Source of the DNA: an uncultured Clostridia bacterium
GTDB taxonomy: Bacteria > Bacillota > Clostridia > TANB77 > CAG-508
Direction of reading: 5' to 3'
Length of the DNA: 64,000 bases
Assembly: GCA_944388735.1 (NCBI GenBank)
Contig: CALXJX010000001.1
Location: forward strand, 7,088 to 71,087
Shown here: positions 18,285 through 18,497 of the stretch, in pieces
How the letters are laid out: every line of letters begins with the position of its first letter
Numbering within the stretch: position 1 is the first letter of the stretch
Position numbers and translations under genes: made by a program
Notes under the pieces: generated by a model
What the model was told of the DNA's origin: nothing
Databases searched by the model: none
What the model saw: only the letters and a program-made list of their open reading frames with translations

Positions 18285-18497
18285 CAACAATTCAGAGGTC
18301 AATGAAGGAAGTATAATTTCTTTCGCAATCTTCTCGGCTTGCTCCATAGATTATAAATTCTAAGCTTAAAATAACCGAGCCTCTCGTTAATCACGCTTCC
18401 TCAGTTATTTTAAGCTAAGAATTTATACATCTATTCCACGGCACATTCGAAGCTTACTCAAGAAATTATACTTCCTTCATTGACCTCTGAATTGTTG
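18285..18497. repeat. Repeat family A copy 2: 213-bp nested-hairpin palindromic element (most complete copy)
   Basis: 37-nt perfect outer arms caacaattcagaggtcaatgaaggaagtataatttct (18285-18321) / agaaattatacttccttcattgacctctgaattgttg (18461-18497). The inner hairpin is ataaattctaagcttaaaataaccgag..ctcagttattttaagctaagaatttat. The 11-nt and 16-nt boxes GTTACTATTCA and AAAATGTTGATATATT are present on both flanks. Confidence 0.9.

Follow-up and report, generated by a model that had tools for sequence, protein, structure and literature searches.

Imperfect intergenic palindromes of 100-200 nt, accompanied by shorter internally deleted variants, are known from the ERIC/IRU, YPAL, Correia (CREE/NEMIS) and bcr1-type MITEs, and the ERIC and YPAL hairpins are preserved through paired changes. 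The repeat described here, family A, has no known sequence relation to these elements. Unlike them, it varies far more in its arms than at its centre, and its core, in which unpaired bases are conserved, is found in many genera. MITEs of the IS66 family (single-ORF, ISBst12 group) share with family A the GTAAC/GTTAC ends, the 8-bp target duplication, the lack of coding sequence and the many intergenic copies, and autonomous IS66 relatives with the termini of family A occur in the same genus. However, the likeness is limited to the first ~15-19 nt, and the interior of family A is an unrelated structured core. REPINs, which are REP doublets mobilised by RAYT, are also long non-coding intergenic hairpins with conserved ends, and compensatory changes on both sides of the REPIN hairpin are common (PMC3116915). 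REPINs make no target duplication and use a Y1/HUH enzyme, whereas family A has 8-bp duplications and IS66-type ends. A RAYT-like gene in the host genome (C28:5232-5996) is flanked by a different palindrome, TGTGCC..GGGACGTGTTT..GGCACA, and family A does not classify as a REPIN/RAYT system.

Another palindromic repeat family (TGTGCCATTGGGGACGTGTTTGTTTGGCACA) is present in the window, by which we mean the whole 64-kb stretch of DNA analysed, at 7914-7994, 8958-9054, 10266-10318 and 62424-62470, and its copies often lie beside family A elements. An inverted doublet of it (G000 C28:5004-5127; L183 705-828) is directly upstream of a 254-aa RAYT-like gene that adjoins dnaB and matches PF01797 and, short of the model cut-off, the REP-associated tyrosine transposase model NF047646 (E = 2.8e-16). 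This is the classic REPIN-RAYT arrangement.

Family A is a MITE family of a known kind, with IS66-type ends and an order-wide conserved core; our literature search found no description of the family. Our analysis points to a MITE of the IS66/ISBst12 type whose arms are probably held complementary mainly by DNA-level recombination or copying from one arm to the other. The family is a clean natural data set on the persistence of long palindromes in bacterial genomes: it occurs in hundreds of genomes, with ~60 copies in each, and its target duplications serve as built-in neutral controls.

Family A in the window and in the host genome

The window belongs to G000, a metagenome-assembled genome of 1.44 Mb with 28% GC, in 58 contigs and 93% complete. 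Public runs containing this genome are chiefly chicken-gut metagenomes; the lineage is uncultured and common in the chicken gut. The original prediction placed three copies of family A in the window, with coordinates that proved right to 1-2 nt when the sequence was re-read (Table 1). The third, a partial copy predicted at 43210-43320, is real and is now read as a slightly longer remnant, in which the piece at 43247-43320 has 85% identity to the left part of copy 2. The predicted inversion of the core between copies 1 and 2 is seen as 159 nt that are reverse-complementary at 91%. Gene assignment also agrees with the predicted neighbours of copy 2, deoD (minus strand) and argS (plus strand), which are divergently transcribed. 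Copy 1 has a transketolase subunit gene on one side and ftsE on the other.

Table 1. Positions in the window of family A copies, their parts and the adjoining MITE arms
Feature	Position	Strand	Remarks
Copy 2, full element	18284-18498		215 nt including GC...GT termini
Copy 2, left outer arm	18284-18322		terminal inverted repeat GCAACAATTCAGAGGTCAA, hypervariable stretch and ATTTCTT, in that order
Copy 2, bubble, left side, 7 nt (TCGCAAT)	18323-18329		opposite CTTACTC at 18453-18459
Copy 2, conserved core, 117 nt (CTCGGCTTGCTCC...CACATTCG)	18333-18449	-	
Copy 2, inner hairpin	18346-18434		~30-bp stems, 20-nt loop at 18380-18399
Copy 2, right outer arm	18460-18498		1 of 39 positions off the reverse complement of the left arm
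Copy 1, full element, core inverted relative to copy 2	10041-10257		
Decayed remnant	43201-43320		tandem partial left-arm/core-start pieces, 43201-43247 and 43247-43320
Second MITE family, arm (GTTACTATTCA...AAAATGTTGATATATT)	18238-18283	+	adjoins copy 2 on the left
Second MITE family, other arm, direct orientation	18497-18543	+	adjoins copy 2 on the right

The outer arms of copy 2 are 92% complementary over 49 nt and its inner arms (18352-18379 and 18400-18427) 93% complementary over 28 nt. Either strand folds far more stably than shuffled sequence, at -100.5 and -115 kcal/mol against ~-35 to -45 for shuffles (z = -18). The core strand that reads CGAATGTG..TGAGGAAGCG..CGAGAGGCTC..AGCCGAG bears a conserved T.G wobble and a tandem G.A; in copy 2 this is the minus strand. 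The 8-mers that flank copy 1, CATTAAAA and AATTAAAC, agree at 6 of 8 positions. No recognisable target duplication flanks copy 2, because the sequence on either side of it is an arm that belongs to a second MITE family. This second family (GTTACTATTCACAG...AAAATGTTGATATATT) is related to family A and has ~46-nt arms, ~15 copies in the genome, IS66-type ends too and a GAATGTGATTGGA motif. Its arms around copy 2 are in direct orientation, though an inverted arrangement would be expected.

By BLAST, family A has ~127 loci genome-wide, amounting to 1.1% of the genome and spread over most contigs, decayed copies included. The complete 89-nt inner hairpin is found at 62 loci with 91-100% identity to copy 2, and at least 92% in all but one. 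The intergenic placement noted in the window extends to the genome, as all 62 cores lie outside ORFs of at least 100 aa. Full elements are 211-215 nt long and have no ORF of their own. Once copies are aligned on the core, the 117-nt unit is almost invariant, whereas the ~40-50 nt on either side are highly divergent between copies, some unalignable, yet complementary within a copy. Non-consensus bases make up 16.7% of the arms and 2.8% of the core, a five- to sixfold difference in divergence. Other forms include truncated copies, copies that lack the inner hairpin, hairpins of arms only and copies with an extra ~140-nt module. The junctions of the short forms are heterogeneous and often asymmetric, and several of these forms keep intact target duplications, which makes them look like deletion products and not precursors.

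Twenty cores lie in divergent intergenic regions, where 10.2 would be expected by length (chi-square p = 0.003). Relative to neighbouring genes, 20 are divergent, 19 antisense tandem, 14 sense tandem and 4 convergent, with no sense or antisense bias in the tandem contexts (14 vs 19; p = 0.49). Making up ~1% of a streamlined gut genome and lying preferentially between divergent promoters, the family may shape regulation and rearrangement.

Ends, target duplications and the putative transposase

Elements begin 5'-GTAAC(A/T)(G/A)TTCAGAGG and have the overall form GTAAC...GTTAC. The terminal repeat found at both ends, GTAACAGTTCAGAGGTCAA, has 50 forward and 48 reverse matches with at most two mismatches in the genome, and a reversed-pattern control gave none. 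For comparison of the outer 8-mers, the ends were set between GT and AACAG on the left and between CTGTT and AC on the right. Flanking 8-mers with at most two mismatches were found in 33 of 63 terminal-repeat pairs, compared with 2 of 63 in a control with the comparison windows moved by 10 nt (p = 2e-10). Examples of these 8-bp target duplications are GAATGTCG, GAAAACTT, GAATAAAT, AATGTTAA and AATGTTTT. The mobile unit is shown to be the entire ~213-nt hairpin, arms included, with an 8-bp target duplication. This agrees with the reading of family A as a MITE-like, transposase-free element: it is non-coding and dispersed in many copies, with inverted-repeat ends and target-site duplications, and none of its copies has a resident transposase in the assembly.

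An 8-bp target duplication is a feature of the IS66 family (ISBst12 group). In congeners, GT(T/A)AC(A/T)(G/A)TTCAG termini enclose ORFs of 441-503 aa that match PF03050 (DDE_Tnp_IS66). The element in G009 is 1672 bp long, with a 497-aa ORF, 28-nt inverted repeats beginning GTTACTGTTCAGAC and the duplication ATAAAATC; that in G265 is 1912 bp, ends in GTTACAGTTCAGG and GTTACAATTCAGG and has the duplication TAAAAAGA. Further IS66-family elements carry GTAACTATTCAGAC at both ends (G086) or have the duplication GAAAAGTT (G294). Among the first 14-15 positions of the family A terminus, GTAACAGTTCAGAGG, 11-13 agree with these IS ends, and the duplications are equally long. Shared termini and duplication length are what one would expect of a MITE that relies on a borrowed IS66-family transposase, which makes such an enzyme the putative mobiliser. 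We take family A to be a non-autonomous DNA transposon of the IS66/ISBst12 type, its copies presumably spread by a transposase since lost or absent from the assembly.

A PF03050 search of G000 gave no match to an IS66-type DDE gene, which is weak evidence in a 58-contig MAG that is 93% complete. The resident cognate transposase that would mark family A as an IS66 derivative is thus lacking in this assembly. A PF03050 gene is present in only 5 of 20 element-rich genomes, so that most family A populations are orphans; orphan populations are common for MITEs.

Other candidate mobilisers were considered and rejected. G000 has no IS256-type gene, and the homologous arm that abuts an IS256 transposase in the congener G014 reflects a nested insertion in a short MITE, since the IS256 element has its own inner repeats. 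That element (G014 C52:8636-10480; L144) encodes a 415-aa transposase, has a 9-bp duplication, TTTCTAGTG, and sits in the middle of a short IS66-type MITE, an arm of which ends several other contigs of G014. A RAYT/Y1 enzyme is encoded in G000 and is flanked by a different repeat family; the long form of RAYT also occurs in 11 of 20 genomes without a core match. Pairs of terminal repeats 3-8 kb apart, considered as autonomous elements, enclose only housekeeping genes. Rpn/YhgA-like (PF04754) genes have no terminal relation to family A that we could find, and we know of no transposition of this kind for such genes. Two of them in G000, 80% identical (C1:83281-84459 and C5:27963-29096), each have a family A element ~240 nt upstream of the start codon, and a third, distant copy is on C3.

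Complementarity of the outer arms

The arms were analysed in 34 full-length copies, which form two main arm classes and give an RNAalifold consensus of 81 pairs. Standard pairs fill 2650 of 2722 pair cells (97%), 2619 of them Watson-Crick, and both sides have changed at 39 of the 81 pairs. Departures from the consensus in the arm interior comprise 136 compensated doubles against 14 singles; for variants present in at most two copies the counts are 30 and 14. The divergence of arms between copies and their complementarity within each, noted at first in the window, is therefore borne out genome-wide as a strong, non-chance compensatory pattern, and the opposite, genome-wide arm mismatches without compensation, was not seen.

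Arm lengths fall into six classes of 35-41 nt, and left equals right in 33 of the 34 copies, which means that indels are mirrored. The exception, C23:17242-17453, has arms of 39 and 40 nt that carry different variants, and its variable part is unpaired. Probably it arose by recombination of two copies, and its survival shows that arms can persist unpaired. Mispairs are equally rare whether G-T (31 cells) or A-C (36), indicating that pairing is symmetric between the two strands.

Arm interiors are mispaired at 16 of 880 positions (1.8%). In full copies whose target duplication can be recognised, its two 8-mers differ at 20 of 168 positions (11.9%; p = 3e-8 against arm interiors), and the outermost 12 nt of the arms are mispaired at 46 of 396 (11.6%), a rate like that of the duplications. 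That arm interiors mispair six times less than the duplications of the same copies differ implies that complementarity is maintained after insertion, although the duplication flanks might be hypermutable and hence a poor clock for arm decay. Such a pattern, with correction in the stem interior and none at the frayed end, is in keeping with template switching within the molecule or with repair of a hairpin that has been extruded. Compensated variants are also common to subfamilies, and part of the pattern was therefore inherited from source copies rather than arising in place.

A 7-nt bubble lies between arm and core, with mismatches at positions 1, 2 and 7 (T.C, C.T and T.C) in ~44 of 62 copies. 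In at least 9 copies from different subfamilies one side has been copied onto the other, through three or four substitutions at once, to give a perfect helix. The overwritten side is the left one in 8 copies and the right one in 1-2; this ratio (8:1 or 8:2) is no more than suggestive of directionality (p = 0.04-0.11). Evidence that the core can flip comes from the one orthologous locus available, C21:18529-18760 in G000 and its counterpart in another MAG, L011 (CALXSB010000132), where the private arms and the flank are alike (flanks 89-92% identical) and core and bubble are inverted. A flip of the core between the same arms implies recombination of one arm with the other; where that reaction ends without a crossover, gene conversion is to be expected.

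We infer that the arms are kept complementary mainly by a DNA-level, strand-symmetric process within each element, for which the candidates are exchange between the inverted arms, by recombination or by gene conversion, and intramolecular template switching as in quasipalindromes. A change in one arm would be either erased or copied into the other, so that arms would drift apart between copies and stay paired within a copy. A force of this kind would mimic RNA-type covariation, and programs that find RNA genes by covariation should be used with that in mind. Template switching renders quasipalindromes "perfect or more perfect" (PMC7202029). In E. coli and yeast it perfects an imperfect inverted repeat in one multi-base event (PMC7202029), as seen in the bubbles of family A, and it also matches the mirrored indels and the Watson-Crick-only pairing. 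However, its descriptions concern reporter hotspots and not the upkeep of palindromes throughout a transposon family, and it leaves the survival of the bubble in most copies unexplained. The persistence of the three bubble mismatches in that majority means that conversion is not uniform along the stem. Rare variants of the inner stem are mostly uncompensated (1 double vs 10 singles). To explain why these mismatches are fixed and why the core is conserved, some selection or other homogenising force is needed. The core (~115 nt), the 7-nt bubble and the termini would thus be held by another cause, be it transposition competence, gene conversion between copies or some further function.

The conserved core and alternative explanations

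Arm-to-arm copying cannot account for the conservation of unpaired core positions. Private changes (singletons) at these positions amount to 0.5%, far less than the duplications would lead one to expect from decay per site. At the orthologous C21/L011 locus, 130 of 132 nt of the element are identical, compared with flanks diverged by 8-11% (P ~1e-3 to 1e-4). Inner-stem variants (TTAAAA/TTTTAA vs TTTAAA/TTTAAA, C-G vs T-A and A-T vs G-C) recur in several arm classes, so copies are mosaics. Gene conversion between copies through the near-identical core would account for both the mosaics and the slow core; the latter would be explained by purifying selection on each copy as well.

A metagenome pattern scan found dozens of contigs of 24-29% GC that are alike in architecture. 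When aligned, 24 non-redundant cores share blocks not forced by the search pattern (CGAATGTG, TGGA, TTCTTA, TTAGAA and GTATTGAGCCGAG) and show compensatory changes at 26 of 39 predicted pairs. A covariance model built from these cores has matches in 68 of 301 sampled genomes of the order, in 10 of 43 genera; among the matches listed, up to 11 scored per genome. The core is therefore conserved, with covarying stems, beyond the source genome, and the apparent restriction of the family to one species, suggested by BLAST of the core in 40 relatives, was a sensitivity artefact. Core-bearing species share only 72-80% argS identity. Their elements have termini of the same kind, e.g. GTTACAATTCACAG...CTGTGAATTGTAAC, and arm sequences of their own. 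The ~115-nt core is absent from IS66-family elements of sister species. It is thus not an IS remnant, and its conservation needs a cause beyond transposase binding at the ends.

One such cause would be that the element is specified by its structure: the folded strand CGAATGTG...TGAGGAAGCG...CGAGAGGCTC...AGCCGAG would be recognised by some protein or act as RNA, and the 3' arm would be re-made from the 5' arm. Re-making by fold-back synthesis or directional conversion would free the arm sequence; in the bubble conversions, one and the same arm was the overwritten one 8 times, against 1-2 times for its partner. The folded strand bears the conserved T.G wobble, the tandem G.A, a U.U mismatch and the fixed bubble. 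We consider this proposal rather unlikely. If true, it would explain why a core absent from IS66 elements covaries across at least 10 genera, why the arms evolve ~six times faster and why unpaired bases are conserved in place.

Selection among replicating copies, as proposed for REPINs, could also produce paired arms and is, though still on the unlikely side, the alternative that we take most seriously. Only single strands that fold into a long hairpin would transpose, active lineages would gather compensated changes, and the copies observed would have arisen recently from a large number of diverged sources. Mismatches and bulges at fixed positions, compensated variants common to subfamilies and a core that covaries in 68 of 301 genomes of the order, with 26 of 39 pairs compensated, are all in line with it, as are the compensatory changes described in REPIN hairpins (PMC3116915). 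However, stepwise selection would not readily yield mirrored indels in six length classes or multi-base bubble conversions, and G-T intermediates are very few. The sixfold deficit of mispairs in arm interiors relative to the duplications of the same copies also argues against it, and the autonomous IS elements do without the core. IS66-type DDE transposases are not known to need a folded single strand. Another explanation would be a structured RNA, be it a small RNA or an mRNA hairpin that acts in cis, with pairing kept by selection on the fold. A conserved T.G wobble in 20 of 24 diverse sequences, the tandem G.A and purine-rich loops all on one strand, unpaired core bases conserved in place and the 130 of 132 identical nt at the orthologous site, against flanks of 89-92% identity, are points in favour of an RNA. 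The core is found in chicken-gut metatranscriptome contigs too, but its depth relative to the flanks is no more than 2-4 times as high as in DNA runs, and the contigs are unstranded, confounded by copy number and possibly DNA. RNA selection would tolerate G-U on the transcribed strand only, and the equal rarity of G-T and A-C mispairs in the arms counts against it; orientation relative to neighbouring genes is likewise unbiased. The predicted promoters of argS (18565-18593) and deoD (18232-18203) each lie between copy 2 and the gene, which leaves copy 2 outside both, and copy 2 contains no promoter-like site. Rfam 15 at the gathering score gave no match to family A in the window, with only spurious plant microRNA-precursor models below threshold, so that no described RNA family corresponds to it. 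A cis-acting or co-transcribed role is unlikely given the random orientation, the promoter positions, the lack of an Rfam family and the weak, unstranded depth signal; a self-promoted small RNA is possible. On the whole we find a structured RNA improbable as the reason for arm pairing. Of the two causes offered in the original prediction, hairpin-templated copying is the better supported, by Watson-Crick pairing with no surplus of G-T, mirrored indels, multi-base bubble conversions and the flip of the core at the orthologous locus, and selection for an RNA fold, with no orientation bias and copy 2 outside both promoters, is poorly supported.

It is highly improbable that the core is itself the mobile part and inserts into the loops of existing palindromes, such as terminators or older repeats, which would then form the "arms". 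Near-identical cores do occur in unalignable arm classes, e.g. a core on C17 that is 99% identical to that of copy 2, and a filled and an empty site exist in two related genomes. The filled site (L011 3108-3440) has an element bracketed by an inverted 17-27 nt of its left flank that is absent from the empty site (G000 C21:20398); either the palindrome grew into its flank, or the element entered the loop of a terminator that has since been lost. Against a mobile core, the 8-bp duplications enclose the whole hairpin with its arms, and the heterogeneous, asymmetric junctions of short forms are typical of deletions. Homology links the odd arm classes with one another and, near the core, with class A, and their T-runs come before, not after, the GC-rich part. 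They are therefore no terminators, and insertion into terminator loops was rejected for these classes. Equally hard to credit is an invertible DNA switch, in which the arms would be the recombination sites of an invertase and the flip of the core would alter expression of a neighbouring gene. The difference in core orientation at the one orthologous locus and the two-fold enrichment in divergent promoter regions (20 vs 10.2, p = 0.003) would suit such a switch, but copy 2 has no internal promoter-like site, site-specific invertases require a conserved site whereas the arms are hypervariable, and ~100 dispersed copies with target duplications fit a transposon.

Across the whole 64 kb, Rfam at gathering thresholds gave no RNA family, including no tRNA, riboswitch or T-box, the region upstream of argS included. 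Elsewhere in the window, three ORF regions at 34968-43051 encode long arrays of ~46-aa repeats (YxTHVQNEGWQ...) of the cell-wall-binding ChW type, and BspA-like leucine-rich repeats are encoded at 33781-34150.
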